Shown: positions 16,862 through 64,000 of the stretch, in pieces
Layout of the letters: each line of letters begins with the position of its first letter
Position numbering within the stretch: the stretch's first letter is position 1
Source: a virus
Direction: 5' to 3' (one strand)
Length of the DNA: 64,000 nucleotides
Virus record (IMG/VR): IMGVR_UViG_3300033149_002604
Coordinates: 32,914-96,913 of that record
Position numbers and translations under genes: made by a program
The notes under the pieces: model-generated
What the model was told of the DNA's origin: nothing
Database searches by the model: none
The model's input: the letters and a program-made list of their open reading frames with translations, nothing else

Positions 16862-18049
16862 CTACAAAATAAACTTCAATGTTTCATTATCTTTACCATA
16901 CTCAAATTTGTACAAATCCAAAATCTTTTCTGGTACTTTCTTCTTTGGAAGCCCTAAAAGGTGTGCATACATCCCCTCAAGACTCCAAATGAAGTTTTCC
17001 ATTACCAATTCTTCCCGTTTTTGTTTAATATTTTCCATAACTTCCAGATACCTGCTTTCTAACTGGCTGGTATCCTTTATATCTTCTATGTCATCAAATG
17101 TAAATCCTATCCCGTGTCTTCTAACATAGTCTTCGGATTGTCTACACCAAGCTGTCAGTGATGGTAAACCAGCATGTAGGTATTCTTGAAGTTTGTTAGT
17201 CATTGTCAGATTTACTTGTCTTTCAGTTGCTTCTTTATTATTGAAGATATGAATTCCATACTTAAATTTGGTTAGTGCTTGCATCATTTCATCATAGTCT
17301 GTGGGTGGGTACAAGACTGCACCAATAAACTGCAATGTAGTATATGCTGTCATATTTCCACAGAATATGTGAACTTCATTTCCCAATTCTACCAACCTTC
17401 TAAATATCCAAGCAAGGTTTCTGTAAGGAAATGTCTGGTTTGCAGCAACATCATCTACTGGGTTAATCCCACCTTCATATACTAGACCTTTCCGTTTTGG
17501 AATATCTTCTTCATTGTATTCTATGATACCTTTATTGCAATAAGGGTATAAAACCATTGTTGGTTTGTTTAATGCGTGAAGTCTTTCTGTCCTTTGACGA
17601 ATGGGTTCTGAAACATAAATTAGTGCATCCGCAGCTAAGAACATTTCCCGTTCGTCAATGGGGATTATGCGTTCGAGTCTGCGAATGGAGTCAAGATCAT
17701 GGAGGTCGCAGACCAGTTTTACCCTGTCTTGTACTCCCATTTCATTAATCACCTGACGAATCCACACAACAGGCCTATCGGGCTCATTTGAGTAATCGAG
17801 AATCCTACAACCTATATCAATCATCATTTTTATTAGATTTTTAAATTGTCTCTCATCCTTATACACATGATATGTGTCATAAGATTCTATTCCATAAGGA
17901 ACTTTATTTCCTATTCCATGAACCTCATATCCTAATTTCTTTAAAGCCCTTCCTCGCTTCACTACCCTCACGCAGTGGTGCATTCCGATCAGGGCTATCT
18001 TAAGAGGATTACCATTCTCATCCAAGATTGGTTTTTCATAATCTGTCAT
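16862..18049 (-). CDS. GT-B glycosyltransferase (GT4-like)
   Basis: DLHDL, ADALIYVSE, LVYEGGI, TNKLQEYLHAGLP motifs. Confidence 0.8.
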   Translation of the reverse strand: MTDYEKPILDENGNPLKIALIGMHHCVRVVKRGRALKKLGYEVHGIGNKVPYGIESYDTYHVYKDERQFKNLIKMMIDIGCRILDYSNEPDRPVVWIRQVINEMGVQDRVKLVCDLHDLDSIRRLERIIPIDEREMFLAADALIYVSEPIRQRTERLHALNKPTMVLYPYCNKGIIEYNEEDIPKRKGLVYEGGINPVDDVAANQTFPYRNLAWIFRRLVELGNEVHIFCGNMTAYTTLQFIGAVLYPPTDYDEMMQALTKFKYGIHIFNNKEATERQVNLTMTNKLQEYLHAGLPSLTAWCRQSEDYVRRHGIGFTFDDIEDIKDTSQLESRYLEVMENIKQKREELVMENFIWSLEGMYAHLLGLPKKKVPEKILDLYKFEYGKDNETLKFIL

Positions 18050-21601: not shown

Positions 21602-22633
21602 TTACGCCCTAGCGTATCTAGTTCGTTTTCTCATAAATCCAGATAAAAGTTTTTTAGCTATTGGTGAAATGGGTAATTTTGCAAGGTTACTAGGATCAAA
21701 ATCTACCCTAGTATCACCAATTCTTACTACCCTAGCACCCATTTCCTTATACCCAACCAATGAATCTAAGTTAGCGTTTCTAACAAGAAATTCTGCCTGT
21801 TCACATTGTGCCGCCTTTACCCTGTCATCAATCGGTGCGAATATTATGAATTCAGTGTTAGTAGTTGGTGTGGCTGTGAAAGATGGATTCACAACTATCT
21901 TACCATTAGTAGAATCTGAAGAAACAATCTGTCTAATATCATATAAAGGTGTTCCTTCTGTTATGTGACAGGTTCCATACTTCCAATAGTTGTCTGGGTA
22001 TTCACCATAAGTTGTGGAATAAAGTCCACTGTTTTTGAAAGAAGTAGCAGTGATCGGTGTAGCGGGATTTCCTGTTACCGTTTCATGATCATCCCTTGGG
22101 AATTGTAATGCTTGTGATTCGTAGTACCTGGCACCAGTGAAGTTGAATGTATCAATTACCCTAGCAGCTTCAACTAACACCCTTCGTTTTCCTTCGTCTG
22201 TAAGTGTATCCCATAGGTCAGAATGTCTGTATTTGTTTCTTATATACTTGTTTGCTTCCCGTAGCGTAACGTAAGAATTTGAAGTAGATCCACCTATATA
22301 TGTAACTAACGAAGTGTTTCCAAACACTTCACATTTTACGTAACTTATATAGGTGTATCCATTTGTTGATTCTGCTTTTATTTTTATAGTATATGTAACA
22401 TCTGCTGTACCACCAGCTATGTCAAAGCTTATATTCGGTGAAGACACAGAAATATTACTGATCATTGAGCTGGTGGTATCAGTACCTTCATCATCTTCTA
22501 TGGTTATAGTAGCAGAAGAGAGGGTATCTCCATCTGTCAAATCATCTGAAAAAGACTTTTCTATTGTAAATTTCTCTTCTGGGTATTTATAGAAATAGTT
22601 GACAGAGCCATCCATTTTCATGAGGTAAAACAC
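21602..22633 (-). CDS. Head-tail adaptor (DnaT-like connector domain) with extra domains
   Basis: SNSYVTLREANKY, QALQFPR, VKAAQCEQAEF motifs. Confidence 0.75.
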   Translation of the reverse strand: MFYLMKMDGSVNYFYKYPEEKFTIEKSFSDDLTDGDTLSSATITIEDDEGTDTTSSMISNISVSSPNISFDIAGGTADVTYTIKIKAESTNGYTYISYVKCEVFGNTSLVTYIGGSTSNSYVTLREANKYIRNKYRHSDLWDTLTDEGKRRVLVEAARVIDTFNFTGARYYESQALQFPRDDHETVTGNPATPITATSFKNSGLYSTTYGEYPDNYWKYGTCHITEGTPLYDIRQIVSSDSTNGKIVVNPSFTATPTTNTEFIIFAPIDDRVKAAQCEQAEFLVRNANLDSLVGYKEMGARVVRIGDTRVDFDPSNLAKLPISPIAKKLLSGFMRKRTRYARA

Positions 22634-22656: not shown

Positions 22657-23946
22657 TTACCAACTGTTAAGCGCTGATCGTTTCCAAGTATTGTTGGCAA
22701 CACAAACGTAGATGTAATCACTATCCCAACAGATTTCCCCAACATTCCCAGTAGCGTTGACTGAAGATGGTGTTTTAGAGGATCTTAAGCGAAAGATGTT
22801 AGAATTAATATCTACAGCAGCAGTTGGGGTTGCTGTTTTGATCCCAATATCTCCGAAGGTGTTATATACAGCACTTACACCGTCTGTCAGCCAACGAGCG
22901 GAATGCTCATCAGCAGTCAGATGATAATATTCGTCTGATGTTCCACCCTGTAAGCCAGTTAACGCATTGTGTTCTACAACAGATTTTGGTATGAAGTATA
23001 AATCAAAAGCACTTTCTATACTTTCAAATGATGAAGCATTCTTTTGAACAATTATCTTACCAATTATCCTACCAATACTAGCAATTACACCTGGAAGAGA
23101 TGCTGGTGGTTGAGCGTTTTGAGCATCTGTTAGTAGATAGTCATCCTGTCCGTATACAACAAAAACATGTCCTTCGATGTCAACATAAATCCAATGAACA
23201 CCATAATATCTTCGCCAACCAAAAGGATCTGATAATGTCGCTAATGTTCCTGATCCATCATCATAATGCAGATTATCAATCTGTGTTTGTCCTGTAACTT
23301 TAGTCCATCCACCAGAACCATCCCTATAATAATATGTAAATGTATCTGTTCCAGAAGTATCAAAACTAGGGAAGGTAACTTCTGTCAGCCCTGCATAATA
23401 AGTACCAGAGGTAATAGCAATATTTCTTGTTCCTGTTTCTGATATTTGTATACCATTAACTCTCTGAAACTTTCCATTCACATCTAAGTCTTTCCAGAGG
23501 GTATTTTTGGCGTAATTAGCAACAACTTGGCCCGCTGTCGTAATATATAAATCTGTTCCATCTCTGTAGACAAGCCCAAGCATCACATTTGTATTTTTGT
23601 CTGAGGGAATTGAAGTGCTTGTTACAATTTGTGGATTTCCACTATTATATTCTACATAGATGTAATTGGTAGTGTTGTCAGTTAGAGAAATTGAACTATT
23701 GGCTGACCAGTCAAATGTCTTGGTTAGTCCCACATCACTATCAGTTGTTTTTATAAGTCCCTTTCCTGCACTAACAGCAACAGTCCCATCACCATTATCA
23801 GTTATGTTTCCCCCTTCTAACTTTCCAGCCGAATGAATAACATTAATCAGATCTTGTAGGTTTGTATAAGTTGGTGTTCCGAGTTGAGAAATGCTAATGT
23901 TGGATGCGGTGAAATCTCCTATTTCACAGATTTCAACGTGGGCCAT
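22657..23946 (-). CDS. Virion structural protein (fibre-like)
   Basis: G/S/T rich; HNALTGLQGG..EYYHLT and GEICWDSDYIYVCVANNTWKR motifs. Confidence 0.7.
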   Translation of the reverse strand: MAHVEICEIGDFTASNISISQLGTPTYTNLQDLINVIHSAGKLEGGNITDNGDGTVAVSAGKGLIKTTDSDVGLTKTFDWSANSSISLTDNTTNYIYVEYNSGNPQIVTSTSIPSDKNTNVMLGLVYRDGTDLYITTAGQVVANYAKNTLWKDLDVNGKFQRVNGIQISETGTRNIAITSGTYYAGLTEVTFPSFDTSGTDTFTYYYRDGSGGWTKVTGQTQIDNLHYDDGSGTLATLSDPFGWRRYYGVHWIYVDIEGHVFVVYGQDDYLLTDAQNAQPPASLPGVIASIGRIIGKIIVQKNASSFESIESAFDLYFIPKSVVEHNALTGLQGGTSDEYYHLTADEHSARWLTDGVSAVYNTFGDIGIKTATPTAAVDINSNIFRLRSSKTPSSVNATGNVGEICWDSDYIYVCVANNTWKRSALNSW

Positions 23947-24264: not shown

Positions 24265-24732
24265 CTATTTTCCGACAATATTATTAAGCATTGGAGCAAT
24301 ACTGCTATCAACATTCTGATTGTCGTTTCCAAATCTGGTACATTCAATCTTGTATATTTTACATATAGCAGGAATCATGTTGTTCAGAAGTTCAACATCT
24401 TGGTAGTAAACTTTCATATACTTATTAACTAAACACATTAACTGTAAGCTGGTAGCAAGTCTTTCAATATCTACACAGTCACTTTTGTAGCGTAAATTTT
24501 GCAGCTTTTTTATTCCTAGAAGTTTACCAACCTTAAGTAGATCATACTTACGTTGGGCATATCTGGCTTCATCACAAAGTCTAAAACCATATTTCTTTTC
24601 TATCTGCATTGGTACTTCAGTGTCATCACACACTATCAGAACTTCATAATGGAAATCGCACTTTTGTATTTCCGATGCTAAGTGGTAAATCCAATCATAG
24701 GTGTTAAAGGAAACTATTAGTGCTTTATCCAC
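24265..24732 (-). CDS. PIG-L/LmbE deacetylase-like protein, degenerate
   Basis: LIV...VLIVCD...R..D....KLLGI...L.Y pattern but no HPDD motif. Confidence 0.4.
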   Translation of the reverse strand: MDKALIVSFNTYDWIYHLASEIQKCDFHYEVLIVCDDTEVPMQIEKKYGFRLCDEARYAQRKYDLLKVGKLLGIKKLQNLRYKSDCVDIERLATSLQLMCLVNKYMKVYYQDVELLNNMIPAICKIYKIECTRFGNDNQNVDSSIAPMLNNIVGK

Positions 24733-24778
24733 AGTATTTCTCCATTCGGAAGTGGCGGTTCGCTAATAACGTTATATG

Positions 24779-25483
24779 TTACTGTGAGATCATTTTATTA
24801 TTTACAACCATATAGATTCTTCCATTTATGACTTCACAATTTATAACCATATTTAAATCTAAAAAGAATTTAATGAAAAATCCCAGACTTTTTACTGAAA
24901 TGTGTTCTAATTGATCTACACAATTAGGAAACTCAGGAGTATAAATCAAAAGATGACCACTCTTTTTCATCTTTGAAAGTGCCCACTTAGTAATTTTCTT
25001 ATACAGCTCATCAGTTACATGTTCAGCAAAGTCTATCTGCAATATAGTATCAAAATCGTCATCTACTTCTGGAAACCAACTAAAATCACAACATATGGAT
25101 TCAATCCTATTATCTAAGTAGGGCTTAAATGCTTCAATTGAATACTTATTACCATCAATACATACAATCTTCGATAAATCGGGTTTTCTTCTGAGAAGAA
25201 ACATTGCTCCTAATCCTGGTCCACCAACATCTAATACTTTACCTTTAATTGTTCCACCAAACATTTTCACCAGATTGTTCCATTTGTTTATGTGGACATT
25301 GGAAAGTCTTGGAAATCTTTCATCATATTCTTCTTTTAAAAGCTTTATGTATTCATGGGCTGTATACTTTCCGAATCTAGTTTCAATACAATACTTTTCA
25401 AAACACCTTTTAGGATCTCCATATTTCCTTAAGTGCCACTCTTCTGAAGTAGCTTCATAAACAATCATAGTTTCTCCAACCAA
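24779..25483 (-). CDS. Class I SAM-dependent methyltransferase
   Basis: KVLDVGGPG, FDTILQIDFAEHV, GHLLIYTP. Confidence 0.85.
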   Translation of the reverse strand: MVGETMIVYEATSEEWHLRKYGDPKRCFEKYCIETRFGKYTAHEYIKLLKEEYDERFPRLSNVHINKWNNLVKMFGGTIKGKVLDVGGPGLGAMFLLRRKPDLSKIVCIDGNKYSIEAFKPYLDNRIESICCDFSWFPEVDDDFDTILQIDFAEHVTDELYKKITKWALSKMKKSGHLLIYTPEFPNCVDQLEHISVKSLGFFIKFFLDLNMVINCEVINGRIYMVVNNKMISQ

Positions 25484-28422
25484 TTTATGTTGTCTGCTGT
25501 TACATTCTTTATAGCAAAATCAACCCGTGGTAGATCACACCAGTTACATAGTCCATAAAATTCACATCTTAAATCATCTAAATTTATAGGTCTAAAGTCT
25601 TTGATATTGCAGATGGGTTTGATGTTGTAGTATAGTCTGTAATGACAATTGAAATAGTTTCCAGACGGATCAATTATTAAAGAAAATATTCCATGTGGAC
25701 ACATTACTGTTGTTCCTTGGCTTTGCCCACACATTTTCCTGTAGAAGGTATAATCATAGATTCCACACATTCTTCTAGCGGATTCTTGGTCCCAGTAACC
25801 CTCATTAGGATATAAGCAATCGGGACGGAAATCTTTAGCATATCCATTTTCTTCAGTCCAGAATCCTAAGAATGGGGGGGATTTTAGTTCTGGAAGAGAA
25901 TTTCTAACCTTTTCTATCCTCTCTTTCCATTTAGTTTCTATTTCAGGGATATAAACAAATGCGATTTGGTCAACATACAACCCACAATCTCTCATTTCAT
26001 TTATTCTAGAAACATATTCCTCTGGTTCCAGTGCATGTGGATGATATGAAGTATTGATTCTTAATGTAGAACCAAATCTAGGTTTAAGTTGTTTGAATTT
26101 CTTACTTTCCCAAAATTCCCCCTTACAATTCGTAGTAATTGTTATATAATAATCTTCAAGATTGTTGACTATTTCAACCAAATCTTTGTGTAATGTTGTT
26201 TCCCCACCTATTAGAGACAATCTTTGCCTTGGTTCGTGATATAAATTATTCCACCAATTTAATATTTCTTTACCACTTAATTCTTCACGTGGAACGTGTT
26301 TACCCCTACCATCTACGATACAAAACGGACAATTTCCATTACATCTAAATGTAATCATGTGTGCCCAATAACACATTGGGTAATAATAGTTGCTAGGTAA
26401 AACTTTTAGCTGTGTTGTTCTTTTATTAAAGTCTGTTACCAAACTTCTTAATCTGTTTATACGTTTTTCAATATCACATTCTGCAAGTTCAAAGTCAATA
26501 AACTTGAATTCCCCATCTTTAATCAATATATTATTTATGTTCAAATCAAATATTCCAACTGCTTCTAATATTTTATGGGCTTCATCAATTATCTTATAGT
26601 ACAGTTCTTTGTTTAAAGATCCTATCTCACCAAGATTTCTCCAATCAAAATATTCAAATAAAATAAATTGATCTTGTATAGCTATTGGTTTTACCACATG
26701 CTTAGAAGCCTTATAAGCTGCAACAGTTCTATCAAATTGATCATCTGCAAAGTTGACTAGACTATCATTGGGATAAAATTTTTCACTTAACCAATCGTTA
26801 TACAGTTGTTCTTTTACAAAATATTTGTTTCCATTGCTGTCTGATACTGTGAAATACCTTACATCTTCTTTGGATTTATGCCTATTACGAAATTGATCTA
26901 CTATTTGATATTCTTTATCTCCAAACCTTATCTTCTTATTCTTCATGTGTTCAGGAAGTTCATCAGAAAACCAAAACAGCCATCTTTCCACACCATGAAT
27001 TTTTTCAGAACAAATCGTTTCAACGTGTGTTGAAATACCTAATTTCTCTGAAACCCATTTTGGAAATTCGGTTCTATGGTCTGTAAACTTTGGAATAAGA
27101 TTTATCCAAGGGGTCCATTCACTACCCTCTTCATTAGATTGTCCCATATCAAATATAACATTCTTGGAAATCCTACCTACTTCTGAAAGAATCTGATCAG
27201 CCACTTCAGCAGAATACTGTTCATAGATATGATGATGGACACTCATGTAAAAAGTGAATTCAAATTCCTTATCCTTGAATTCTTTCAACCTATCTAATAA
27301 ATCTTTTTCTAGCAGTTCGAATGTACATTTATTATTAGCAGCCTGTGCCTTCTTTGCAGATTCGATCATCTTAGGATCTGTATCTAGCCCTAAAACATCA
27401 AATCCCATTTGGGCAGCTAGGATGGAAAAATACCCGTTGTTGCAACCAATATCTAAAATCTTACCTGACTTTTTCTTAACAAGTATAGGTTCTATGTATC
27501 GCCATCTTTTAGCTGAATCCCGCTTTCCACCACACTGTCCTGTAACAGACGAATTATATGATGTATCTACGTTATTGAAATAATTAAGAATGTCCTGCTT
27601 GTACTTATTCCAGTTCAAAATTTCAGTTAAATCATTAGCATTTCCGGCTACCTGTACATTACCGAATAGTGGTATGGCTTGGTGAACTGGGGTGCTTTTA
27701 AACATAGCCAAGAGATTTTTCCTAAATGCACCTGCAATGTGCATCACCACACTGTCTATTGCACATATAAAATCTACATAAGCAATAAGTGCTTTACTGA
27801 ATCGCATGTCATCTTCTGGTAATTCGATGGATCGGGAACATGATTTACGACCAAATTCAAATATCGTAAACTGGTTGAACATTTCGTTCATCATCTTTTC
27901 TATTATGTCTGATTCAAATTCTTTGGGTGGATTTCCAGCTTTATTGTGTAGAATCAGCCAAGGTTTGTCATACTGGCTAAGATATTCCATTGCTTTTTTA
28001 GCATAGTCTTCACGGAAGGTAAGTTCGGTGATGAGTTCTTCTATCCTATCAAATTTAATTCCCAATTCATCTGCTGCCCTGAATATCTTGTGCATCTTGA
28101 ATCCAGCTTGTCGTAGTAAGGGAAGGGTTATGATGTTGTCATACTTGCCTAAATATTCATACTTGACTGATCTGTCAAGTTCCCTAATATTGTCAAGATA
28201 CCCATCATAAGACTTTACATTTTCCCAAGGATCAGGAAGGATTGGCAAGAATTCATCTACAAAGGTAAATTCTAGTAGTTCTTCAACCTTTGAACCAAAC
28301 CTTTGTAGACTTGCTAGGGAAATTTCAGTATCAGAACAGATTTGCTTGTACTTTCTTAAAGCTGGGGTTAATAAGATATGGTCGCCTAAGCCGTGGGGGT
28401 AAACTATTAGAATCTTTGACAT
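25465..28422 (-). CDS. Four-domain fusion: GT9 glycosyltransferase + SAM methyltransferase + kinase-like + radical SAM/SPASM (likely start 28422)
   Basis: HGLGDHILLTPAL and IDSVVMHIAGA (GT9); ILDIGCNNGYFS...MSVHHH (methyltransferase); FVKE...DLNINNIL...FIDFE (kinase); CNGNCPFC, IGGET and C-terminal Cys (radical SAM). Confidence 0.85.
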   Translation of the reverse strand: MSKILIVYPHGLGDHILLTPALRKYKQICSDTEISLASLQRFGSKVEELLEFTFVDEFLPILPDPWENVKSYDGYLDNIRELDRSVKYEYLGKYDNIITLPLLRQAGFKMHKIFRAADELGIKFDRIEELITELTFREDYAKKAMEYLSQYDKPWLILHNKAGNPPKEFESDIIEKMMNEMFNQFTIFEFGRKSCSRSIELPEDDMRFSKALIAYVDFICAIDSVVMHIAGAFRKNLLAMFKSTPVHQAIPLFGNVQVAGNANDLTEILNWNKYKQDILNYFNNVDTSYNSSVTGQCGGKRDSAKRWRYIEPILVKKKSGKILDIGCNNGYFSILAAQMGFDVLGLDTDPKMIESAKKAQAANNKCTFELLEKDLLDRLKEFKDKEFEFTFYMSVHHHIYEQYSAEVADQILSEVGRISKNVIFDMGQSNEEGSEWTPWINLIPKFTDHRTEFPKWVSEKLGISTHVETICSEKIHGVERWLFWFSDELPEHMKNKKIRFGDKEYQIVDQFRNRHKSKEDVRYFTVSDSNGNKYFVKEQLYNDWLSEKFYPNDSLVNFADDQFDRTVAAYKASKHVVKPIAIQDQFILFEYFDWRNLGEIGSLNKELYYKIIDEAHKILEAVGIFDLNINNILIKDGEFKFIDFELAECDIEKRINRLRSLVTDFNKRTTQLKVLPSNYYYPMCYWAHMITFRCNGNCPFCIVDGRGKHVPREELSGKEILNWWNNLYHEPRQRLSLIGGETTLHKDLVEIVNNLEDYYITITTNCKGEFWESKKFKQLKPRFGSTLRINTSYHPHALEPEEYVSRINEMRDCGLYVDQIAFVYIPEIETKWKERIEKVRNSLPELKSPPFLGFWTEENGYAKDFRPDCLYPNEGYWDQESARRMCGIYDYTFYRKMCGQSQGTTVMCPHGIFSLIIDPSGNYFNCHYRLYYNIKPICNIKDFRPINLDDLRCEFYGLCNWCDLPRVDFAIKNVTADNINWLEKL

Positions 28423-29339
28423 TAATCGCCTCGCATTATGGTTGTTATTATCTTTTCCGTAACATCCTTCCAAGTATGCAACTTTCTAACCTTTTCTAGT
28501 CCTTCCCTTGCAATTGCTTCCCTTTCATCGTCATGTTTCAGGTAATATTCTACCAGTTCCATGAATTCACTTTCATTCTTGAACCAAACCAAATTCTTCT
28601 TATTGTCAAAGAACAAACTTAAATCATCACAGAATTCTGAAAGTAAAAATCCACCACAACCTAATGTAGTTACCACACGATCGCTGAATATGTTGGAATG
28701 AACTAGATTTAGAACTATTTTATACTTGTTGATAGTCTTTCTTAAGTCAGCTAACACTATTGGTGGATTAGGTGAAATTTCTTCAGGCCAACCTTGACCG
28801 TAAACGTCTATCAGGTCTAAGTGTTTAGAAACAAAATTCAATCTTTTAGCTGTAGCACTTCCAAAGAACAGAATTTTATCAATCTTGTTGGTATTATCTT
28901 CTGGATAGAATATATCTGGATCATAGCCTTCTATAATTAGGTAGGACTTCCCAGTATATTTATGTCTATCAAAGAATTCAACTACTTCACTTGAAGTTGC
29001 GCTTGCAAAATTTACCCTAGTCACGTATTGTTCTGCCCGAATAGCTTCAGCAACCCTAATATTGTCCATGAACCAGTACCAAGTTGTACATTGTTCAGTC
29101 ACTTTTTGAACAATTGCTGGGTTGACGCCATTTATTTTGCTGAATAATACCAATTCAGGTTTGTATCTGTTGACGGCCCACAATAGATAATCATAGAATA
29201 CTTCTTTTCCTTCCTTGGAAATGATTGTTCTGTAATTTATAGGAATTACACCCCAACCATTCTGCTTAAAACCTTTTGCCATCCAGACATTGGTGCTTTC
29301 TGGTTTGTCTAGTACACCAACGATCATTACTTTTGGCAT
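28422..29339 (-). CDS. Glycosyltransferase (CgeB/Glyco_trans_1_2-like)
   Basis: GYDPDIFYP, DVYGQGW, YKIVLN, SDRVVTTLGCGGFLLSE, YYLKHDDEREAIAREG. Confidence 0.85.
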   Translation of the reverse strand: MPKVMIVGVLDKPESTNVWMAKGFKQNGWGVIPINYRTIISKEGKEVFYDYLLWAVNRYKPELVLFSKINGVNPAIVQKVTEQCTTWYWFMDNIRVAEAIRAEQYVTRVNFASATSSEVVEFFDRHKYTGKSYLIIEGYDPDIFYPEDNTNKIDKILFFGSATAKRLNFVSKHLDLIDVYGQGWPEEISPNPPIVLADLRKTINKYKIVLNLVHSNIFSDRVVTTLGCGGFLLSEFCDDLSLFFDNKKNLVWFKNESEFMELVEYYLKHDDEREAIAREGLEKVRKLHTWKDVTEKIITTIMRGD

Positions 29340-30340
29340 GGGACTTCTCCAATTATTTGGTTTAGGTTTTCCGTATGCTTATTGACTACATCTTCATATT
29401 GCTGCCTTTTCAAATTTTCTACTTCATTCAGTCTATCAAGCATTGTCGCTATGTCAGATAGGATGGTTTCAGCATCAATAGCCCGATAATCTGAAACATA
29501 TCTAAAACTTACTGGTACATCAAACCTGTTTTCCAACACAGCATGTCTATGTTTTTCATGTCCAATAATATAGCTGGGACAACAGCTTTGTAAACTTACA
29601 TGTGTAAGACCAGATTGACTACTAACTGAACATACTGCTGAATTTAGATAGGTTACAATTTGATCCATTTTATCTTCACCATCGTAATCAATCAGGTTGA
29701 TTACATTGTCTGCCTTGTACCCTGATAGGAATGAACCAGATGGTGTACCACAAAGTACCACAATGAAGTATTTTCTTAACCCTTCTACAACTTCAGCCCA
29801 TACAAATTCGGGTACATTTCTAAAAGCAGCTCTACTCCTCCCTCGCGGCATTACACAAATAATATCCCGTTCTAGTTTAACTTTAGGTCTTACAAGTTTC
29901 CTGAAAATCTGTGGTGCATAATTTATAAAAGCATTACATCCACGTGGGGGAAATATTTCTATAGTCTTTGTCCAGTCATAAAAGGTTCTGCAATATTCTA
30001 TGATTTTAGAATATACATGTGGGGGTGTTAGGCTTCCTGGTGGTGATCCAAGTAGTGGTGCTTCATAACAATCCCGTTCCAATTCCATACCATAAAACCA
30101 GTCGGGAAGTTCTATCGTATAGTCTACGAAGTCTTCTACGAATATGTGGTAATCCAATTCTGTGAACAGTATGAATTTTCTGTCCTTATATTCATTGTGC
30201 TTAAGAAACCTCAGATGTGCTTGAAAGCGGCTTAAAAACCACCCCAATTCACCATAAAAGAAAGATGCAACACAAGGTTCATTTATGTACAAATCCTTAT
30301 TTATTATCTGGCTGTGCTGGATTGTCTGTGTTCCTTCCAA
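29327..30340 (-). CDS. GT-B glycosyltransferase, GT9-like
   Basis: GELGW N-terminus; INLIDY...VSSQSGLTHVS resembles the GT9 DSG.MH motif. Confidence 0.6.
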   Translation of the reverse strand: MEGTQTIQHSQIINKDLYINEPCVASFFYGELGWFLSRFQAHLRFLKHNEYKDRKFILFTELDYHIFVEDFVDYTIELPDWFYGMELERDCYEAPLLGSPPGSLTPPHVYSKIIEYCRTFYDWTKTIEIFPPRGCNAFINYAPQIFRKLVRPKVKLERDIICVMPRGRSRAAFRNVPEFVWAEVVEGLRKYFIVVLCGTPSGSFLSGYKADNVINLIDYDGEDKMDQIVTYLNSAVCSVSSQSGLTHVSLQSCCPSYIIGHEKHRHAVLENRFDVPVSFRYVSDYRAIDAETILSDIATMLDRLNEVENLKRQQYEDVVNKHTENLNQIIGEVPCQK

Positions 30341-30701
30341 ACCGCAACTCCTTTAAAATATTCTTTATATCCCTTCGCATTTCGTACTGGTTGGCTTTAA
30401 GTTCCTTTATTGCTTCATACAGCAGGGTATAGCTAGATTCAAGTTTTGCTACACGTTCATTCTGTGCTGCTACTGCCTGCTTGTCTGCAAATCGCATTAC
30501 TGCCGATTGATTGTCACTCCACAGCTTCACCCCAGTAGAAATGGCTGGAATAGCTATAGCACCAATGATAATATACAACCACTTTTTAGGTACTTTATTT
30601 GCTACACATCTTACCAACCCACCAGTACCATCCTTACCATACAATGCTTCTTCTATTTTACGTAATGTGGACTGGCATTCGGGATCTGGACAATTGGTCA
30701 C
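30297..30701 (-). CDS. Single-TM coiled-coil membrane protein
   Basis: LYGKDGTGGLV, TM helix, coiled coil. Confidence 0.6.
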   Translation of the reverse strand: MTNCPDPECQSTLRKIEEALYGKDGTGGLVRCVANKVPKKWLYIIIGAIAIPAISTGVKLWSDNQSAVMRFADKQAVAAQNERVAKLESSYTLLYEAIKELKANQYEMRRDIKNILKELRFGRNTDNPAQPDNK

Positions 30702-31544: not shown

Positions 31545-33188
31545 CTACTGCGTTGATATGCCTCCTGAGATGGAGACGCCGTGGAAATTACCCCATCTAT
31601 ATTCGTAAGCACCGATGTCCCAGGCTGAGCCTTGAGGTCTAGAGATATTATCAAGATCATAATTGTAAGTAGTACCTAAATCTATCCCAGAATCTACACA
31701 ATCGGAACTGCTTCTTAAATAGTAATTGTTATTTGCTGGATCTATAAAACTGGCTTGTTTGTTATCTCCCGCAGAATCATGACTATTTACACCTTCATTC
31801 TGCTCAGCTATAAAATCGTCGAATAACTTCATTCCACCAGAATAATAATAATTTATATTGGTACAACCAATATCTGCTATGCACCATCTGACTACACGTT
31901 GGTCGCCATTCCCTTGGTCGAAAAGGTTGTAATCTCCTGTATAAATCAAATCAGAAGAATCATAAACACATAAATCGCCGTCGTTTGTGTCTCCATCAAT
32001 ATTATTCTGATAAAGGACGCAATTTTTCATTGTAACAAGAGTATCTCTATTGCTATATGAGGGTGCACTAAGATATACACCAAATGAGTTGTTAGCAAAT
32101 GTACAATTATATATATAGACTGTGGGGCCATTATATACATGGCACCCAATGTTATTCTCATAAGCCAAACAGGAAACAAAATAAAACCTTGAATTGCCAG
32201 TAGAATCCGCTGCATTAGCAGCAAAACCATCATCATTGTTATATGAGCGGCATCGTTTAAAAATGATGTTATCGTCTAATACACTATTCGACACAGTCCC
32301 ATTGTCAAAACCATCTCCTTCATTATCGTAAGCTAAACAATCGCTTATAGTAATATCATGAGAATCAGTTATCCAGAAGCCATGTTTTAGGTTCCCACCA
32401 CCGCCACCACCTCTTGGTGTATCTCCATTGTTATGTGAAATACAATTAGATATAATCCCATTACTACAACCATATGTAGAACCCCCAATGTAGAATCCAG
32501 TCGTCAAATCATTATCTCCACCATCGGCTTCACACCATTCAATTGTAAAACTGTCTTGTCGTTGTATAACATAGCTCTGTTTTCCGCTATTTATACACTT
32601 AACATGGCTCATCTCTAGACCACTACATTTTGAGGCTTCAGATGTTCCTAGTGCTCTTATTGAATAATAATCGGCTCCAGAAACAATAAAACCGTCGTAT
32701 GAACTACTTATACCGGCGATTCCACTTATTGTTAGATAAGGAATAGGTGTGATGGTTCCATCTGGTAAAATTCCAATATTTATTAACGCTTGGTATTCAT
32801 CAGAATATGATGCGTTACTATCTGTAAAAATTACAGATCCAGTTCCCCAATTTATGTCACGTTTTATGGAAATTCTGTTACTTGGTGTAGCAGAATTAGA
32901 ATAGTAATCTGTGTTTATATAAATAACACCAATATGTGTAGTGCCAGACTTTATAAAAATCAAATCTCCAGGTTGAATAGTAACTGAAGGGCAGTTGTAA
33001 CCGGTATTATCCAATTTTCGTGTGCCAGGAATATGTTGCCAAGGCGTAGAAGTTGACAATCCATCATTAGAGTCAGAACCACTACTAGGGTCAACATAGT
33101 ATGTACTGGCCCAAGAACAAAATAAGGAAACAAATAGAAAGATCAATAAAAATATACTAACAATAAAAATTCTTTTATTAATCAACAT
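31545..33188 (-). CDS. Signal-peptide-bearing right-handed beta-helix (pectin lyase-like) protein
   Basis: Hydrophobic N-terminus, YYVDPSSGSDSNDGLS..PW, repeated NC..Y.N rungs, C-terminal RPQGSAWDIGAYE. Confidence 0.85.
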   Translation of the reverse strand: MLINKRIFIVSIFLLIFLFVSLFCSWASTYYVDPSSGSDSNDGLSTSTPWQHIPGTRKLDNTGYNCPSVTIQPGDLIFIKSGTTHIGVIYINTDYYSNSATPSNRISIKRDINWGTGSVIFTDSNASYSDEYQALINIGILPDGTITPIPYLTISGIAGISSSYDGFIVSGADYYSIRALGTSEASKCSGLEMSHVKCINSGKQSYVIQRQDSFTIEWCEADGGDNDLTTGFYIGGSTYGCSNGIISNCISHNNGDTPRGGGGGGNLKHGFWITDSHDITISDCLAYDNEGDGFDNGTVSNSVLDDNIIFKRCRSYNNDDGFAANAADSTGNSRFYFVSCLAYENNIGCHVYNGPTVYIYNCTFANNSFGVYLSAPSYSNRDTLVTMKNCVLYQNNIDGDTNDGDLCVYDSSDLIYTGDYNLFDQGNGDQRVVRWCIADIGCTNINYYYSGGMKLFDDFIAEQNEGVNSHDSAGDNKQASFIDPANNNYYLRSSSDCVDSGIDLGTTYNYDLDNISRPQGSAWDIGAYEYRWGNFHGVSISGGISTQ

Positions 33189-33747
33189 ATACCCTCACTG
33201 CCAAACCTTCAGCATATGATGTCAATGACGAATCATCCTCACAGTTATCAGTAGCATAATCTATAACAGTTGAATAATAACCATTAACGTCTTCCGAATA
33301 ATATTTTACATTCCCAGAAGAGTCGTCTGATATAAGTATATATAAAGTTATTCCATTTGAAACAGAGATCCCAGGAGATACCGTTATATCTGATACCCAA
33401 CCACTTGCTGGTGCAGCTATACCACGTTGGTACCATAAACAATTCCCAGATGAGTCTAAAATCTCAATTTTAAGATTACGACCAGTTCCATATGAATTTA
33501 TCTTGCAAGAAACCTTCGTTACCGTTCCACCTTGGTCAAAAGTTATTTTATCTCCGCTGGCGGTAGCTGCACCACTTATATATAAATATCCAGCATAAGT
33601 AGGCTCTGTAGTTGCACCATCATTATAATAATACTGATCTGGTCCTCCACTACTAGACGAACTCCCACTAATAATCACCGTCCCCCACCCCCACACTAGG
33701 GCAGGGATGAGAAGCAAGACTAAAGCTAATGCAATCCACTTTTTCAT
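33178..33747 (-). CDS. Signal-peptide-bearing beta-rich protein
   Basis: MKKWIALALVLLLIPALVWG, then Ser/Gly linker. Confidence 0.75.
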   Translation of the reverse strand: MKKWIALALVLLLIPALVWGWGTVIISGSSSSSGGPDQYYYNDGATTEPTYAGYLYISGAATASGDKITFDQGGTVTKVSCKINSYGTGRNLKIEILDSSGNCLWYQRGIAAPASGWVSDITVSPGISVSNGITLYILISDDSSGNVKYYSEDVNGYYSTVIDYATDNCEDDSSLTSYAEGLAVRVYVD

Positions 33748-35372
33748 TAGTCAGCACCTCCATCAGACCAGGTTCCCGATCTCCCAAGCGTTATCCAAGT
33801 GCTGTCATCTATTGCTAGCAAGCTAATGAAATCCCCTGCATTGCCTTCGCTGTCAATAGCGTTGCCAGCAGTAAGGGATGTTCCATCTAAAATGATAGTG
33901 TCTGAATCATCATATGTATCTACCGTTACCGTAGCTGCATACTTGGAATAGAAAGTAATGCTCAAGCCAGCAGCCGCAGCAGGAAGGGTGTAATCAATAG
34001 CATCATTGTCATTGTTGATTCTCATACCACCCTTGCAGTCTGAAGCTGAAAGGGTCACTGAGGCATCTGTGTCTAGTATTACAGGAACATTTCCAGAGAG
34101 ATTACCTGTGAGAGCTAGGCTTGTACCTGTAGCTGCCCCTATGTTAGGTGTGGTTAATGTAGGACTGGTTGCTAAAACTACACTCCCACTTCCAGTGGTT
34201 CCGTTAGACAGGTCAGAGGCGGATATCTGAGAGCCGTTGATCTTATACTTTTTCCCAGAGGCTAAATTAAAATCACTAGCTGCCTCGATATTACCATCAG
34301 CATCAAGTTGCATGATCGTAGTAAGGGTTCCATTAACAAGAACCTGAAAGAACAAATCAACATCCTCAGTCCCATCTCCTGTGTCTGTAGCGTTCCCATA
34401 TATCTTCCAGTCAATACTTTCAGCACTTGTGTCTGAATCGTCTCCTGTGATGTCTGGTGTAGCTGAAGCCCCTGATTGGATACCCCCATCAGCATATAGG
34501 GTTCCATCAACTTCCAAAACTCCCTCTACTCCAAGTTGTGGAGAATGACCAAAATTGTAACTTCCATCACCAATATAAATGTTATGATTGTTACTATCTA
34601 GATTCCCACCTAGTTGAGGGGAGGTGTCTTCAACTACATTCTTCAATAATGAAGAACCATCTGAGAGGTTACTTGAGCTTATTTGACTTCCGTTTATCTG
34701 ATAAATAGCCCCACTTGGTAAATTCAGATTACCAGTGTCATCAATTGTGACGTTTGAGTTCTGGATCGTCTTCCCACCAGTTCCATCAAACCTTGCAATG
34801 GCGTTATCAGTTGAGGAAGCTGGCCCCGTTACATCACCGCTACCTGATGGTGTCGCCCAAGCACCGTCACCACGCAAAAACTCTGAAGTGGAACCACTAA
34901 GCTTAGGCAGGAGACCATGAGCCGAAGTGGATGCATTTGCTGTGGTGACATCAGAAAAGTTTAGTTCTCCTTCCTCAATGCTCGTACCAAGACTTACCGA
35001 AAGTGTAGTATCTGAAAACGAAAATCCTGTTCCAAAAGTGAGCCAAGTTATCGCTCCAGCCGAATCATCCCAGAACAATCCCCTATCTGCATTGGGATCG
35101 GATAATGATGCACCAGTCCCACCATCTGCAAGGGCCACGTCTGTTGATCCTGGGGCATAGTAGTCAGTACCTGCTGTAGCAGCACTAAAATCCCCAGCAC
35201 CGTCACATTTAACGATTCCACTGACTCCATCTAAGTCATCTATCTCTTGTAAGAAGGTATCAACCTGACTACCCGTGTAACCTGTAGTAGTATTATAGGC
35301 ATAAATAAACGATCCTACACAAATACAAAGCAAAGCTATGATAAGACCTATAATATATTTTTTTGTCTTCAT
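33747..35372 (-). CDS. Signal-peptide-bearing fibre-like structural protein
   Basis: MKTKKYIIGLIIALLCICVG; fibre motifs VALADGGTGAS, GDVTGPASSTDNAIARFDG, DTSPQLGGNLD, GSGSVVLATSPTLTTPNIGAATGTSL. Confidence 0.8.
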   Translation of the reverse strand: MKTKKYIIGLIIALLCICVGSFIYAYNTTTGYTGSQVDTFLQEIDDLDGVSGIVKCDGAGDFSAATAGTDYYAPGSTDVALADGGTGASLSDPNADRGLFWDDSAGAITWLTFGTGFSFSDTTLSVSLGTSIEEGELNFSDVTTANASTSAHGLLPKLSGSTSEFLRGDGAWATPSGSGDVTGPASSTDNAIARFDGTGGKTIQNSNVTIDDTGNLNLPSGAIYQINGSQISSSNLSDGSSLLKNVVEDTSPQLGGNLDSNNHNIYIGDGSYNFGHSPQLGVEGVLEVDGTLYADGGIQSGASATPDITGDDSDTSAESIDWKIYGNATDTGDGTEDVDLFFQVLVNGTLTTIMQLDADGNIEAASDFNLASGKKYKINGSQISASDLSNGTTGSGSVVLATSPTLTTPNIGAATGTSLALTGNLSGNVPVILDTDASVTLSASDCKGGMRINNDNDAIDYTLPAAAAGLSITFYSKYAATVTVDTYDDSDTIILDGTSLTAGNAIDSEGNAGDFISLLAIDDSTWITLGRSGTWSDGGAD

Positions 35373-35390
35373 TTTGTACCCCTCATTGTT

Positions 35391-36162: not shown

Positions 36163-36525
36163 TTACTTAACCTTAGTAGCTGCATTATCAGCAGTAAATA
36201 GCCACATGCTACCAGCTGAAGAAAGGGTCATAGAACCTTTCACAGAAGCATCTACTGCGGTAGCTTCAGCAACTATGGTAGCAGCAGTATTAGCTGTGCT
36301 GATAAAAATATACTGATGGTCACCTATCTTAATTCTACCGCTAGAATGAAGTAGTGGGGCAGTTACTGAAGTGTTGCCAGTAAGTGTAGTAGCTGTTACA
36401 GCATTAGCTGTTATTGTTGGTGTGTGTAAGGAAGTATTACCAGTAAATGTAGTAGCTACAACCGTGTTTGCGGTTATTGTTTTCCCTTTTGCAATAATAT
36501 TACTTCTAAAATGTGTCGTTCCCAT
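36163..36525 (-). CDS. Hypothetical virion protein
   Basis: AAGGAGGTGA RBS; Thr-rich tandem repeat. Confidence 0.7.
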   Translation of the reverse strand: MGTTHFRSNIIAKGKTITANTVVATTFTGNTSLHTPTITANAVTATTLTGNTSVTAPLLHSSGRIKIGDHQYIFISTANTAATIVAEATAVDASVKGSMTLSSAGSMWLFTADNAATKVK

Positions 36526-36647: not shown

Positions 36648-36680
36648 ACTAGATTGGGGAAAGATTACCCCAATCTAGTA
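36648..36680. terminator. Hairpin downstream of the major capsid gene
   Basis: ACTAGATTGGGG/CCCCAATCTAGT inverted repeat. Confidence 0.6.
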
Positions 36681-36699: not shown

Positions 36700-38476
36700 T
36701 TAGCTAGAAGCAATTGCATTAGCATACCAAAATCGCCAATTGGTTACTACTCCACCATAGCGACAATTGATAGTAATGAAATAATCAAGCGACACCTCAT
36801 CGATGAACGTATCAATGATAGGATCTTGGCGGTTGCTTGCAATTAGTCCTTCCTTGGCTTTTCCTAAGAACCACCCATCAGTGTCACTCAGATAACTCCA
36901 CTCTATCGGATTCACCAACCCACGGAGCACATTGACATCATTGTCTGCACTTCCAGGGATCAGTGTAGAATTCAGAAGCACCTGAGCAGTAAACTTCAGT
37001 GCGGGTGGAATCAAAAGGGTGTCTGGAAGTATTTCTACAACATTTCCCCTTTCATCCCTATTGTTGGTAGAAGTCATAGTAAGATATACTGACCTCAAAT
37101 TAGATTCCGTCAAAGAATTGGAAGCACCATAATTAGAATAGGTGTTCCCAACCTTATCGGGGTGTGCAGTAGAGAAGAAAGGTTTATTGTCATAGATCAA
37201 GTTCCCTGTAGGATCATCAATAACATTAGCAATGGTGTTATTAAAAACATCATTGCCAGCAGTCATTGCCCCGTAGTTGAAGAACTTGGCATAGAACTTT
37301 TCCTTGGTTCTAAGATATGCCTTACCCCAAGAACCAACAGCCTGTTGGATAAGGTTAGACTTCTGGCTGTCTTCGATAGATTCTTTGGAAAATCTAGCAA
37401 TCCTTCCAAAAGTCCTGTTCTTGCAGATTACAGTGTAACCTTCCATTGGGGCATCTGGCTGCAAGTCTTCACTTTCAGGTTTTTCCACCAAGTCACCCAT
37501 TCCGATAGCTGTGGTGAATTTCTCATCACATTTGTTACTGTCTATTGACAGGACTGGTCATTTCTGCCAGTCTCCACACATTGCTGTGTGGGTCGGACTA
37601 TATCACTACTAGATTTATCATCTAGCAGGTTGGCGTACGGACCTAGTTTGTATCTCATACAAGGAACTATATATGGTTTGATAATTTCTACAAATCTGTC
37701 ATTGTGTTTATTTCGAAGTCTTAATCTATATTTATAATTACCAAGTTTCGTTTTTCCTGCCTTATTGATATTCCAATCGAGATCAAACTTCAATTTAAGG
37801 CTTTTTTTGAGAAGAAGTTGATTAGCATAATCATAAGCTTCGGTACTTAGATAAAATGTAACATCTTTGCCATTAGGATTAAAACCATGTGTGCCGTTAT
37901 CCATGAATAAAATTGCTAATGAAAGTGGATTTAGTTTCTTTACGATATATTCATCTAAGACCTTTCTACCATTATAATACATTCTCTTTCTAAGTTTGGT
38001 AAGCATTGGATGTTGTCTTGTTCCTAGATGGTATCCATAAAATATCTTACCATTTAATTCTCTCTTCGTTTTGTGTATTGAAGATGATGTTATTTTATCA
38101 AGGAACTTTTTCTTCCAGAGCATATATTCGTATTGAGCTTCACAGTGGCTCATCTGAAAAAAAGCTTCACTTCTACCTTTTCTACACGACAAACACCCAT
38201 CTCCCATTACCATTGCTATTATCACACTTCTAAGTTCTTCTCTATTTAGGTCCATAGTCTCTACACCCTCCTTAAAGGATTGGCTCGGTATTGTCCTCAG
38301 GGGATTTCCACCGAATTTAGCCAACTACGCGCATAAGTTTACGCTGCATCGGAATCAACTACATCAAATATATTTTCATACACGGGAGCTTTTTGCTCAT
38401 AGGCTTCCCAGAAGAAACCATAGGCCGTCTTCTTCATATTTTCAGTAAAATCATCACGTCTTACTCCGCCTGCCAT
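36700..38476 (-). CDS. Major capsid protein (Mu gpT-like), spliced: exon 1 38476-38341, exon 2 37526-36700 (320 aa)
   Basis: Joined product MAGGVRRDDF...VDSDAA-Y-EKFTTAIGMGDL...; YDNKPFFSTAHP, PDTLLIPPAL, WFL, RYGGVVTNWR motifs; follows scaffold. Confidence 0.92.
37527..38340 (-). ncRNA. Group I intron (814 nt) in the major capsid gene, with an ORF starting in the P8 region
   Basis: 5' exon ends GCGT and pairs with GCGC (U.G); P AATTCGGTGGAAA, Q AATACCGAGC, R GTAGAGACTA, S GATATAGTCC; P9 hairpins; terminal G. Confidence 0.93.
37542..38255 (-). CDS. Intron-encoded LAGLIDADG homing endonuclease (likely start 38255)
   Basis: IAMVMGDGCL and LAILFMDNG motifs; AAGGAGG RBS inside the intron core. 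Confidence 0.9.
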   Translation of the reverse strand: MDLNREELRSVIIAMVMGDGCLSCRKGRSEAFFQMSHCEAQYEYMLWKKKFLDKITSSSIHKTKRELNGKIFYGYHLGTRQHPMLTKLRKRMYYNGRKVLDEYIVKKLNPLSLAILFMDNGTHGFNPNGKDVTFYLSTEAYDYANQLLLKKSLKLKFDLDWNINKAGKTKLGNYKYRLRLRNKHNDRFVEIIKPYIVPCMRYKLGPYANLLDDKSSSDIVRPTQQCVETGRNDQSCQ

Positions 38477-38509
38477 TAATTTTCACCGTCCTTATTTAGA
38501 GTTTATATC

Positions 38510-38989
38510 TTATGACATGAAAGCAGAAGGTTTAATAGAAACCAACACTGCATCATTGTCAGCGTCAAAATCATGAATCAAAAGCATCTGGCTTGCCTCA
38601 GTATCCACCTTGTAAGCCTTCTGCGTCAAAGCATAAGTAGCATTGGCCGTCTTGATACTAGCACCAGCCCCCACTACAGTTGCATTTGCGCTAGCAGAAG
38701 CAGTGTCTAAAGGCATCCAGAACTTGTTTTCTACACCCACATACACAAAGCCTTTCTCTTCAGCAGAAGTCTTATGACCATTCTTGCCTGAATCATCTTT
38801 GGGTGCATGTGCCCAACCAAATATACCACCAGCAGTCCCTGTGGGGGTTGCATTGGTATATAAGGTAGCACGTCCATTAACCATCTTTACAAACCTTCCA
38901 GTTTGTCTATTCAAATACTGATTAGCTGCAAAAGGAACCTCTTCTCCCTTACCAGGTCCCATTGACCATCCCATACGAAATTTAGCCAT
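38510..38989 (-). CDS. Putative capsid decoration/cement protein (likely start MAKFRMG)
   Basis: Between scaffold and capsid; same 13-nt RBS as the capsid gene. Confidence 0.65.
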   Translation of the reverse strand: MAKFRMGWSMGPGKGEEVPFAANQYLNRQTGRFVKMVNGRATLYTNATPTGTAGGIFGWAHAPKDDSGKNGHKTSAEEKGFVYVGVENKFWMPLDTASASANATVVGAGASIKTANATYALTQKAYKVDTEASQMLLIHDFDADNDAVLVSIKPSAFMS

Positions 38990-39015
38990 CTTATATTTCA
39001 CCGTCCTTCATAAAA

Positions 39016-63373: not shown

Positions 63374-64000
63374 ATGGACATCGAACTAGAAGATTTAAAA
63401 TACATTGACAAATTCAAAAATTTACGTGTCCTTGTAATTGGGGACGTAATGTTGGATCAATATATTATAGGAACTGCGACACGTATATCACCAGAAGCCC
63501 CAGTTCCTGTTATAGAACTAGAAAGACAATGTTATTCGGTAGGTGGTGCTGGAAACGTTGCCAGAAATGTAGCTTTGTTGGGAGCAAAAACATACTTGTT
63601 TGGTTCTGTAGGAAAAGACTTTGGTGCTTCGAAAATAAGAGAGTGTTTGCACAACTATGATAATATAACGTACAAGTTTACCATATCAGACACCTTTGAA
63701 ACCACCACAAAGACAAGAATTATTGCAGATGGGGTTCAAATGATAAGGTTGGATCGGGAAGGAGATTCAGATAGGGATCAAACAGCACAGCTACAAAAAG
63801 AAAACCTAATCACATTCATAAAGGAAGAAGTAAAAGAAGTAGATGCTATAATTATATCAGATTACAACAAAGGAATCCTTCATGAACATATAACACCAAT
63901 AATAAAGGAAAATCTAGATGGTTTGGTATTTGTAGATGCTAAACCAGACAATTTACACAAATTTTATAATGTTCCCGCAATAATAAAACCAAACAAAAAA
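63374..64000 (+). CDS. rfaE1: D-glycero-beta-D-manno-heptose-7-phosphate kinase (HldE/RfaE domain I, PfkB family), truncated by window end; not in ORF track
   Basis: VLVIGDVMLDQYIIGTATRISPEAPVPV, GGAGNVARN, TTTKTRII, RLDRE, IISDYNKG, VDAK, IKPN. Confidence 0.92.
   Translation, partial: MDIELEDLKYIDKFKNLRVLVIGDVMLDQYIIGTATRISPEAPVPVIELERQCYSVGGAGNVARNVALLGAKTYLFGSVGKDFGASKIRECLHNYDNITYKFTISDTFETTTKTRIIADGVQMIRLDREGDSDRDQTAQLQKENLITFIKEEVKEVDAIIISDYNKGILHEHITPIIKENLDGLVFVDAKPDNLHKFYNVPAIIKPNKK

Follow-up and report, generated by a model that had tools for sequence, protein, structure and literature searches.

A hypervariable glycan island anchored by a GT9-like glycosyltransferase gene occupies a fixed position in the head module of related uncultured phages

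In 19 related contigs of the IMG/VR collection, a GT9-like glycosyltransferase gene was found at the same position as the anchor of a glycan island of hypervariable content, and the present analysis concerns the version of this island carried by an uncultured phage. The window analysed is a stretch of 64,000 nucleotides (bases 32914-96913, ~36% GC) of the linear IMG/VR virus record IMGVR_UViG_3300033149_002604, which is 96,913 bp long and 79% complete as estimated by CheckV; positions given below are those of the window unless preceded by the name of another contig. A tailed-phage structural arm with all genes on the minus strand extends from 91 to 48783, and within it a first-pass annotation, made from the sequence alone, had proposed a heptosylation and glycan-capping cassette of five consecutive genes (24265-30340) situated between head and neck genes. 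This layout was recovered in full, as all five open reading frames (ORFs) are present on the minus strand and abut or overlap one another, with the capsid gene (36700-39001) upstream and the adaptor gene (21602-22633) downstream. The first two ORFs overlap at 29327/29339, the ATG of the third at 28422 overlaps the stop codon of the second, and the stop codon of the third (25465-25467) overlaps the ATG of the fourth at 25468. We consider there to be an even chance that the island directs glycosylation of the virion, with soluble enzymes, produced together with the late head proteins, building a capped glycan in the cytoplasm on at least one virion protein.

All ORFs of the related loci were clustered, which established one recurring gene order: the terminase, portal, scaffold and capsid genes come first and are followed by those for four proteins of 84, 161, ~120 (Thr-rich) and ~130 aa, and the GT9-like gene, the variable block, a PIG-L-like gene and the adaptor gene complete the series. 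The capsid gene is common to the window and 17 of the 19 contigs at 53-80% identity, and the portal and terminase genes are also shared wherever the related locus extends that far. The variable block measures from 1 to ~10 kb and nearly always includes a Glyco_trans_1_2 enzyme, while its other contents vary by locus and encompass further glycosyltransferases (additional Glyco_trans_1_2, GT2, GT8 and GT9), sugar enzymes (DegT-type aminotransferases, a nucleoside diphosphate-sugar 4,6-dehydratase, a hexapeptide acyltransferase and a sugar-phosphate nucleotidyltransferase), radical S-adenosylmethionine (SAM) enzymes of the B12-dependent and SPASM types, and methyltransferases. Judged by its predicted enzymes, the diversity of island content is O-antigen-like. 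The smallest islands (L020 and L023) consist of the anchor glycosyltransferase, a CgeB-type glycosyltransferase and a stand-alone copy of the GT9 domain which in the window forms part of a four-module fusion protein. In the closest relative, L006, whose capsid protein is 80% identical, the corresponding fusion carries a sulfotransferase in the position of the methyltransferase-kinase module, a replacement among sister phages that is consistent with capping at the end of the glycan.

GT9 enzymes are characterized by an N-terminal G-D motif and by the C-terminal motif D-S-G-x-x-H-x-A at the donor site. The anchor protein, P0002, had no match in Pfam, PHROG or NCBIfam, yet its AlphaFold2 model (40 homologues in the alignment; predicted local distance difference test (pLDDT) score of 92) had GT9 enzymes as its best matches in the PDB by Foldseek, namely WaaF (7.8e-8), a Veillonella GT9 protein (3tov), TibC and WaaC, at E values of 8e-8 to 1e-5. 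The previous assignment of this gene to GT9 was therefore sustained in the form of a GT-B fold with GT9 structures as nearest neighbours. The nearest entries in a viral structure library were models from uncultured phages labelled Aah/TibC and RfaF, while the GT9 family profile PF01075, for which the Pfam gathering score is 22 bits, was weakly matched by 16 of 40 members of the P0002 family (best E 2e-4). P0002 has G-E at the N-terminal motif, and the anchor family has an invariant SQSGLTH where GT9 enzymes have DSGxxH, the donor-site Asp being replaced by Gln. The family comprises 117 clusters, mostly 50-60% identical, and is essentially viral: it was encountered in just two of 185,579 species genomes, both times on a short contig of a metagenome-assembled genome (MAG), and tblastn of P0002 against 50,697 GenBank phage records returned no match. 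Approximately half of the family (P0033-P0136) carries a C-terminal Methyltransf_24 fusion, to a total of ~500 aa, whereas the window encodes methylation separately.

The second ORF specifies a Glyco_trans_1_2 enzyme of the CgeB type, an island homologue of which is present in 15 of the 19 related loci. For the third ORF (25465-28422) the most likely start codon is the ATG at 28422, which gives the 985-aa form on record, and its product, P0006, is a fusion of four modules. Foldseek analysis of its AlphaFold2 model (mean pLDDT 82.5) returned WbdD first and GT9 structures next; the radical SAM part was closest to SuiB. The N-terminal module was assigned as a second GT9 domain, in agreement with the first-pass annotation: while its score against PF01075 is borderline (19.7 bits with the protein, 22.2 bits in a six-frame search), its alignment profile (A4) matched WaaF (5.9e-6) and 3tov (1e-5) with both signature motifs aligned, Foldseek placed 3tov (E 3.9e-12) ahead of WaaF and WaaC, and the GLGD and DSxxMHxA motifs are invariant and aligned to those of WaaF and 3tov. 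The methyltransferase and kinase predicted to follow were likewise confirmed, and by fold and motifs they represent a WbdD-like, capping-type pair. The best PDB sequence match of the methyltransferase module is that of WbdD (profile E 1.1e-16), and the structural match to WbdD (E 8.1e-16) spans ~400 aligned columns of a 442-residue chain, thereby covering both modules. The kinase motifs of P0006 are YFVKE (residue 534, with the beta-3 lysine), FDLNINN (625) and FIDFE (641); D626 and N631 are invariant among eight homologues and, together with D643 of the FIDFE motif, correspond to the catalytic residues D351, N356 and D369 of WbdD (PMC3482155), all of these kinase positions, the lysine included, being conserved if not invariant in homologues. 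The methyl-phosphate capping enzymes MePCE and BCDIN3D were among the fold matches of the methyltransferase module, alongside many ordinary class I methyltransferases.

The C-terminal module of P0006 is a radical SAM domain with a CX3CX2C motif (CNGNCPFC at residue 694) and nine Cys residues within the last 120 residues. A SPASM domain was not detected in it by Pfam, and the twitch models were matched by distant relatives only. The domain is rare: a set of 1.84 billion proteins contains only 32 representatives with E values below 1e-30, and it is often found inside giant multi-domain proteins; neither an NCBIfam equivalog nor a named relative was identified, the similarity being confined to the generic core shared with MoaA, SPASM proteins and viperin. 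P0006 as a whole had no tblastn match in the GenBank phage records, and other homologues of the fusion carry added TPR or Glyco_trans_1_2 modules. The fourth ORF encodes a stand-alone class I methyltransferase with weak Pfam matches, and the fifth a 155-aa protein that had been labelled a degenerate PIG-L. The degenerate part of that label holds, as the HPDD metal/catalytic motif is absent from all five aligned family members, four of which have (N/D)TY(D/S)W in its place; the likeness to PIG-L, however, is treated as a lead, being based on viral PIG-L clusters (Atlas feature score 0.87, TM score 0.76), and the protein did not match any Pfam family, including PIG-L/LmbE (PF02585). Homologues of this protein adjoin the adaptor gene in L006, L009, L012 and L023, and one lies at the 3′ end of the island in G008.

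Nucleotide-activated heptose is produced either by the GDP-D-glycero-alpha-D-manno-heptose route (GmhA, HddA, GmhB and HddC) or by the ADP-heptose route (GmhA, HldE or HldA/HldC, GmhB and HldD). The first-pass annotation had proposed to test GT9 and HldE for co-occurrence across phages, and within this clade GT9-like and heptose-pathway genes were indeed observed together, the latter in seven of 22 clade records, which are mostly fragments (most 8-64% complete); among the 50,697 GenBank phage records, only 35 are matched by HldE-like kinases. In G007 the island encodes, in order, a GT9-like-methyltransferase fusion, an HddC-like nucleotidyltransferase (best PDB match a Yersinia 6-deoxy-mannoheptose pathway protein, E 1.4e-14), an HddA-like GHMP kinase (6.6e-43 against heptose phosphate kinases), a GmhB-like phosphatase (84 bits) and a GmhA-like isomerase (1e-6 against phosphoheptose isomerase). 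The same four GmhA/HddA/GmhB/HddC-like genes are located 1.8 kb upstream of the terminase gene in G006, and in G010 an HddC-like gene stands right after the anchor glycosyltransferase gene, at which point the contig ends. G008 encodes an HldA-like kinase (312 bits) and an rfaE_dom_II-like (HldC-like) adenylyltransferase (144 bits), the latter specified by the last gene of the island, directly before the PIG-L-like gene, and HldA-like kinase genes adjoin radical SAM genes in G002 and G020. All of these scores lie below the equivalog cut-offs, the full-length relatives of the kinase reaching 287-312 bits against a cut-off of 345. Predicted gene functions support heptose at the level of the clade without showing it for the phage of the window, and whether the GT9-like enzyme of this phage transfers heptose is, in our estimation, a matter of about even odds.

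Some further associations were noted around these heptose genes. The radical SAM gene adjacent to the kinase gene in G020 was considered as a relative of the radical SAM domain of the fusion and rejected, as the two are not related. At L003:7730-10338 an HldA-like PfkB kinase is encoded beside a radical SAM gene that is 50% identical to the domain of the fusion and is fused to a methyltransferase, while at L029:5610-7723 such a kinase is encoded directly beside a radical SAM gene unrelated to that domain, and these pairs hint at a sugar pathway using both activities. In addition, a protein of ~220-250 aa (L010:14165-14923 and L037:7058-7720, 59% identical) travels with the four heptose-pathway genes and may be a heptose-modifying enzyme.

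Virion glycosylation is favoured because the whole lineage keeps the island at the same place within its late head operon, because the cassette enzymes are soluble and unaccompanied by lipid-carrier, flippase, polymerase or exporter genes, and because island content varies in the manner of surface-antigen loci; the mycobacteriophage precedent and the presence of TibC, a protein O-heptosyltransferase, among the best fold matches of the anchor add to this. Membrane segments were predicted in none of the five enzymes, and no flippase, polymerase, ABC transporter or polyprenol-phosphate transferase was identified in the cassette, nor any of the first three beside it. We infer from genes and predicted folds which acceptor is used and which donor this phage employs, as well as the formation of a methyl-phosphate and the chemistry of the radical SAM domain. 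The clade-wide GT9-fold enzyme (29327-30340) would start or extend the glycan, probably from a nucleotide-heptose donor in a TibC/Aah-like manner, and further sugars would be added by the CgeB-type glycosyltransferase and the second GT9 domain. The WbdD-like kinase-methyltransferase would then phosphorylate the terminal sugar and methylate the phosphate to give a cap, for which the sister phage would employ its sulfotransferase, and further modifications may come from the stand-alone methyltransferase and from the radical SAM domain. Candidate clade-wide acceptors are the conserved Ser/Thr tail at the capsid C-terminus (…NAIASS), which is aligned across related loci, and the Thr-rich protein of ~120 aa, which is kept in at least eight related loci with a repeat region that differs in length. 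A bolder formulation, which we put forward tentatively and consider more apt to fail than to hold in all its parts, is that of a clade-wide, O-antigen-like hypervariable head-module locus in which a GT9 enzyme specific to viruses would initiate a protein-linked heptoglycan at the surface of the capsid, with interchangeable WbdD-like methyl-phosphate or sulfate terminators and a new radical SAM family performing some form of sugar chemistry, resulting in serotype-like diversification of virions.

A number of results weigh against virion glycosylation as formulated here, in particular with respect to its heptose component. The donor of the anchor family may differ from the GT9 norm because SQSGLTH replaces DSGxxH. 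The HldE-type kinase reported by the first-pass annotation at 63374 does match its family, but the gene is truncated by the contig end and is located 33 kb from the cassette on the opposite strand, within a replication module and amid genes for an SNF2 helicase and a DNA ligase; its missing C-terminus was not found at the other end of the contig. The same annotation had proposed to search the rest of the genome for gmhA, gmhB, the adenylyltransferase and hldD; genes for GmhA, GmhB, an rfaE_dom_II adenylyltransferase and the heptose epimerase were absent from the 96.9 kb record (79% complete), and while HldD was not found in this genome, relatives were not searched for it. The sole complete relative, G005 (144 kb with terminal repeats), possesses the anchor glycosyltransferase and a rich island without any heptose gene. 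The proposal that the phage supplies its own nucleotide-heptose is consequently not supported for this genome. Furthermore, L003, an unrelated viral contig, carries related modules beside DNA polymerase III alpha, and host assignment was unsuccessful, with the anchor family occurring on just the two short MAG contigs (Halanaerobiales and Desulfatibia).

The main alternative is that during infection the island remodels an envelope glycan of the host, be it the S-layer glycan, the capsule, the O-antigen or the lipopolysaccharide (LPS) core, perhaps as a means of excluding superinfecting phages or of aiding release, in which case the GT9 enzymes would act on lipid-linked acceptors, as do WaaC and WaaF, and a polymer would be ended by the WbdD-like module. 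The best-characterized GT9 enzymes and WbdD do act on LPS (PMC3482155), and the gene just upstream of the cassette (30297-30701) specifies a small membrane protein. We nevertheless regard this alternative as unlikely, given that the cassette is devoid of the carrier, flippase, polymerase and transporter genes listed above, that its fixed head-module slot throughout the clade is unlike the situation of seroconversion modules and is left unexplained by this reading, that bacterial genomes almost never contain the anchor family, and that the radical SAM domain takes the place of the C-terminal coiled coil of WbdD.

It is also conceivable, and attractive for this phage, if rather improbable, that the acceptors are secreted proteins of the phage itself, with the signal-peptide, Ser/Thr/Gly-rich products encoded at 31545-36115 being glycosylated in the cytoplasm prior to export in the style of TibC/Aah and autotransporters. 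Four neighbouring ORFs with signal-like starts, one encoding a right-handed beta-helix and the set containing 18-23% Ser+Thr, would suit the TibC-like fold of the anchor glycosyltransferase, as would the three such proteins in the same slot of L006; these proteins are, however, limited to the window and L006, whereas the pair of GT9-like and CgeB-type enzymes is clade-wide, and for that reason they cannot be the general acceptor. A quite different destination for the sugars, phage DNA, is suggested by the synthesis of mono- and di-heptose on 5-hydroxymethylcytosine by clusters of other phages, as described in a preprint (Pyle et al., bioRxiv 10.1101/2023.12.21.572611). Such glycan hypermodification of hydroxymethylated bases might account for the position of the kinase among replication genes and for the DNA polymerase III alpha gene next to the related modules of L003, yet the cassette is part of a late head operon, and methyltransferase-kinase, sulfotransferase and CgeB-type enzymes are not among the enzymes that the consulted passages of that preprint mention. 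Moreover, a thymidylate-synthase-type hydroxymethylase, a TET/JBP dioxygenase and a C5 methyltransferase were all absent from the 96.9 kb, the TET search being weak as it was also silent in control genomes; on these grounds the DNA-hypermodification reading was set aside as very improbable. Virion glycosylation remains the favoured explanation for the island.

Table 1. Features of the island and of its surroundings in the window (aa, amino acids)
Feature	Position	Strand	Remarks
GT9-fold glycosyltransferase P0002, 337 aa	29327..30340	-	AlphaFold2 model and Foldseek; anchors the 5′ end of the island clade-wide
Glyco_trans_1_2 (CgeB-type) GT-B glycosyltransferase	28422..29339	-	PF13524, E 2e-25
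Fusion domain 1, second GT9 domain	27526..28422	-	GD and DSxxMH motifs; Pfam borderline, profile and fold clear
Fusion domain 2, class I SAM methyltransferase	27124..27525	-	Methyltransf_11, E 2.9e-11
Fusion domain 3, protein-kinase-fold (WbdD-like) kinase	26422..27123	-	K / D-x4-N / D motifs intact
Fusion domain 4, radical SAM, Cys-rich C-terminal part	25465..26421	-	PF04055, 36.1 bits against a cut-off of 29.5
Class I methyltransferase, 234 aa, weak match	24779..25483	-	MTS 23.1 bits, Methyltransf_25 23.9 bits
PIG-L-like protein without HPDD motif, 155 aa	24265..24732	-	3′ anchor of the island; adjoins adaptor gene
HldE/HldA-type heptose-7-phosphate kinase (PfkB)	63374..64000	+	TIGR02198 (rfaE_dom_I), E 1.5e-55 over 199/315 positions; cut by contig end
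Additional GT-B glycosyltransferase, tail module	16862..18049	-	weak Glyco_transf_4 and PRK09814 matches
Large terminase	42395-44278	-	
Portal	40148-41689	-	
Scaffold	39016-39936	-	
Major capsid gene, two pieces (36700-37500; 38510-39001)	36700..39001	-	around LAGLIDADG ORF
Thr-rich 120-aa protein, 30% Ser+Thr	36163..36525	-	repeat of variable length; clade-conserved
Beta-helix protein, 547 aa, right-handed	31545-33188	-	
Fibre-like protein	22657-23946	-	PHROG tail fibre, E 2e-22
Head-tail adaptor	21602-22633	-	downstream of cassette
Tape measure	9204-13301	-	

The surroundings of the cassette are summarized in Table 1. Both Ser/Thr-rich flanks reported previously were recovered, the fibre-like protein on one side and the beta-helix protein on the other, each with 18-23% Ser+Thr. 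The four consecutive minus-strand ORFs at 31545-36115 encode proteins of 157, 541 and 189 aa in addition to the 547-aa beta-helix protein, all with hydrophobic, signal-peptide-like starts, and a fifth, short ORF of 83 aa in this region has a similar start; the three proteins in the same slot of L006 have AxA-type cleavage sites, while other clade members have none there. A further glycosyltransferase had been proposed at 16862, for which a GT-B match is present, albeit weak, and in L024 a homologue of this gene directly follows the GT9-like fusion gene. Terminator-like sites in the cassette region were no more frequent than in shuffled sequence, and a combined promoter and terminator scan returned nothing above that background. 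The phage has no cultured relative: the cassette DNA had no similarity to any of the GenBank phage records, and the closest cultured terminase and portal sequences are ~35% and ~29% identical, respectively, within an overall range of ~29-36%, the source phages having varied hosts.

Mobile elements and other features were also observed in these genomes. A LAGLIDADG endonuclease ORF (37542-38324) interrupts the capsid gene, and the same insertion is present in L009, L018 and L022, most relatives being uninterrupted; this is consistent with a mobile insertion of the intron or intein type. HNH endonuclease genes related to the one at 15347-16267 occur in several copies per locus in L007, L010, L011, L012, L018 and L019, scattered across the head module and glycan island of those phages. 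Immediately 3′ of the capsid gene a perfect palindrome with a 12-bp stem (36648-36679) may represent an attenuator or processing site, and a gene for an N6/N4 DNA methylase (PF01555, E 3.6e-48) is located on the minus strand at 46324-47094, near the small-terminase region.

If the favoured reading is correct, a clade-wide variable island at a fixed slot would signify that phages diversify the surface of their particles much as bacteria diversify their O-antigens, by means of an island equipped with chain-capping enzymes and with nucleotide-sugar pathways of its own, and this would bear on phage recognition, adsorption and environmental persistence. The fusion protein offers to enzymology a soluble WbdD-like terminator together with an uncharacterized, glycan-linked radical SAM family, and the exchange of methyltransferase-kinase and sulfotransferase constitutes a natural experiment in capping chemistry.

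To our knowledge, phage virion glycosylation has been demonstrated mainly in mycobacteriophages. The systems concerned, of the Che8 and cluster O/Corndog types (Freeman et al. 2023, as cited in PMC11600133 and PMC12619734), resemble the present island in combining tandem phage glycosyltransferases with an O-methyltransferase gene. The island differs from them in that its anchor glycosyltransferase and fusion are without a sequence relative among the 50,697 GenBank phage records, in its GT9-fold enzymes, WbdD-like kinase-methyltransferase, radical SAM domain, sulfotransferase exchanges and nucleotide-heptose pathways, and in its hypervariable content at a fixed slot, the glycan here being a predicted one. 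Among the GT9 heptosyltransferases, WaaC and WaaF act in the synthesis of the LPS core and TibC and Aah in protein O-heptosylation; the proteins described here share their GT-B fold and have GT9 enzymes as best matches, and the fusion domain retains the GD and DSxxMH motifs, whereas the anchor family falls under the Pfam threshold and has SQSGLTH in the DSGxxH position. With regard to heptose supply, counterparts of all four genes of the GDP-heptose route are found in G007 and G006, and the ADP-heptose route is represented by the HldA-like kinase and HldC-like adenylyltransferase of G008 and the HldE-like kinase of the window, although this genome has just the truncated kinase and all scores are under the equivalog cut-offs. 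The chain terminator of E. coli O9a, WbdD, has two functions, as kinase and as methyltransferase, and phosphorylates the terminal mannose of the O-antigen and methylates the phosphate (PMC3482155), and it is the best sequence and structure match of the fusion module, with which it shares the order of methyltransferase followed by protein-kinase-fold kinase as well as three kinase residues (catalytic Asp, Mg-binding Asn and DFG-like Asp). In contrast to WbdD, the fusion does not possess a C-terminal coiled-coil ruler, its radical SAM domain following directly after the kinase in the model, and its WbdD-like module is situated between a GT9 and a radical SAM domain in a soluble, phage-encoded protein with no ABC-transporter pathway nearby.

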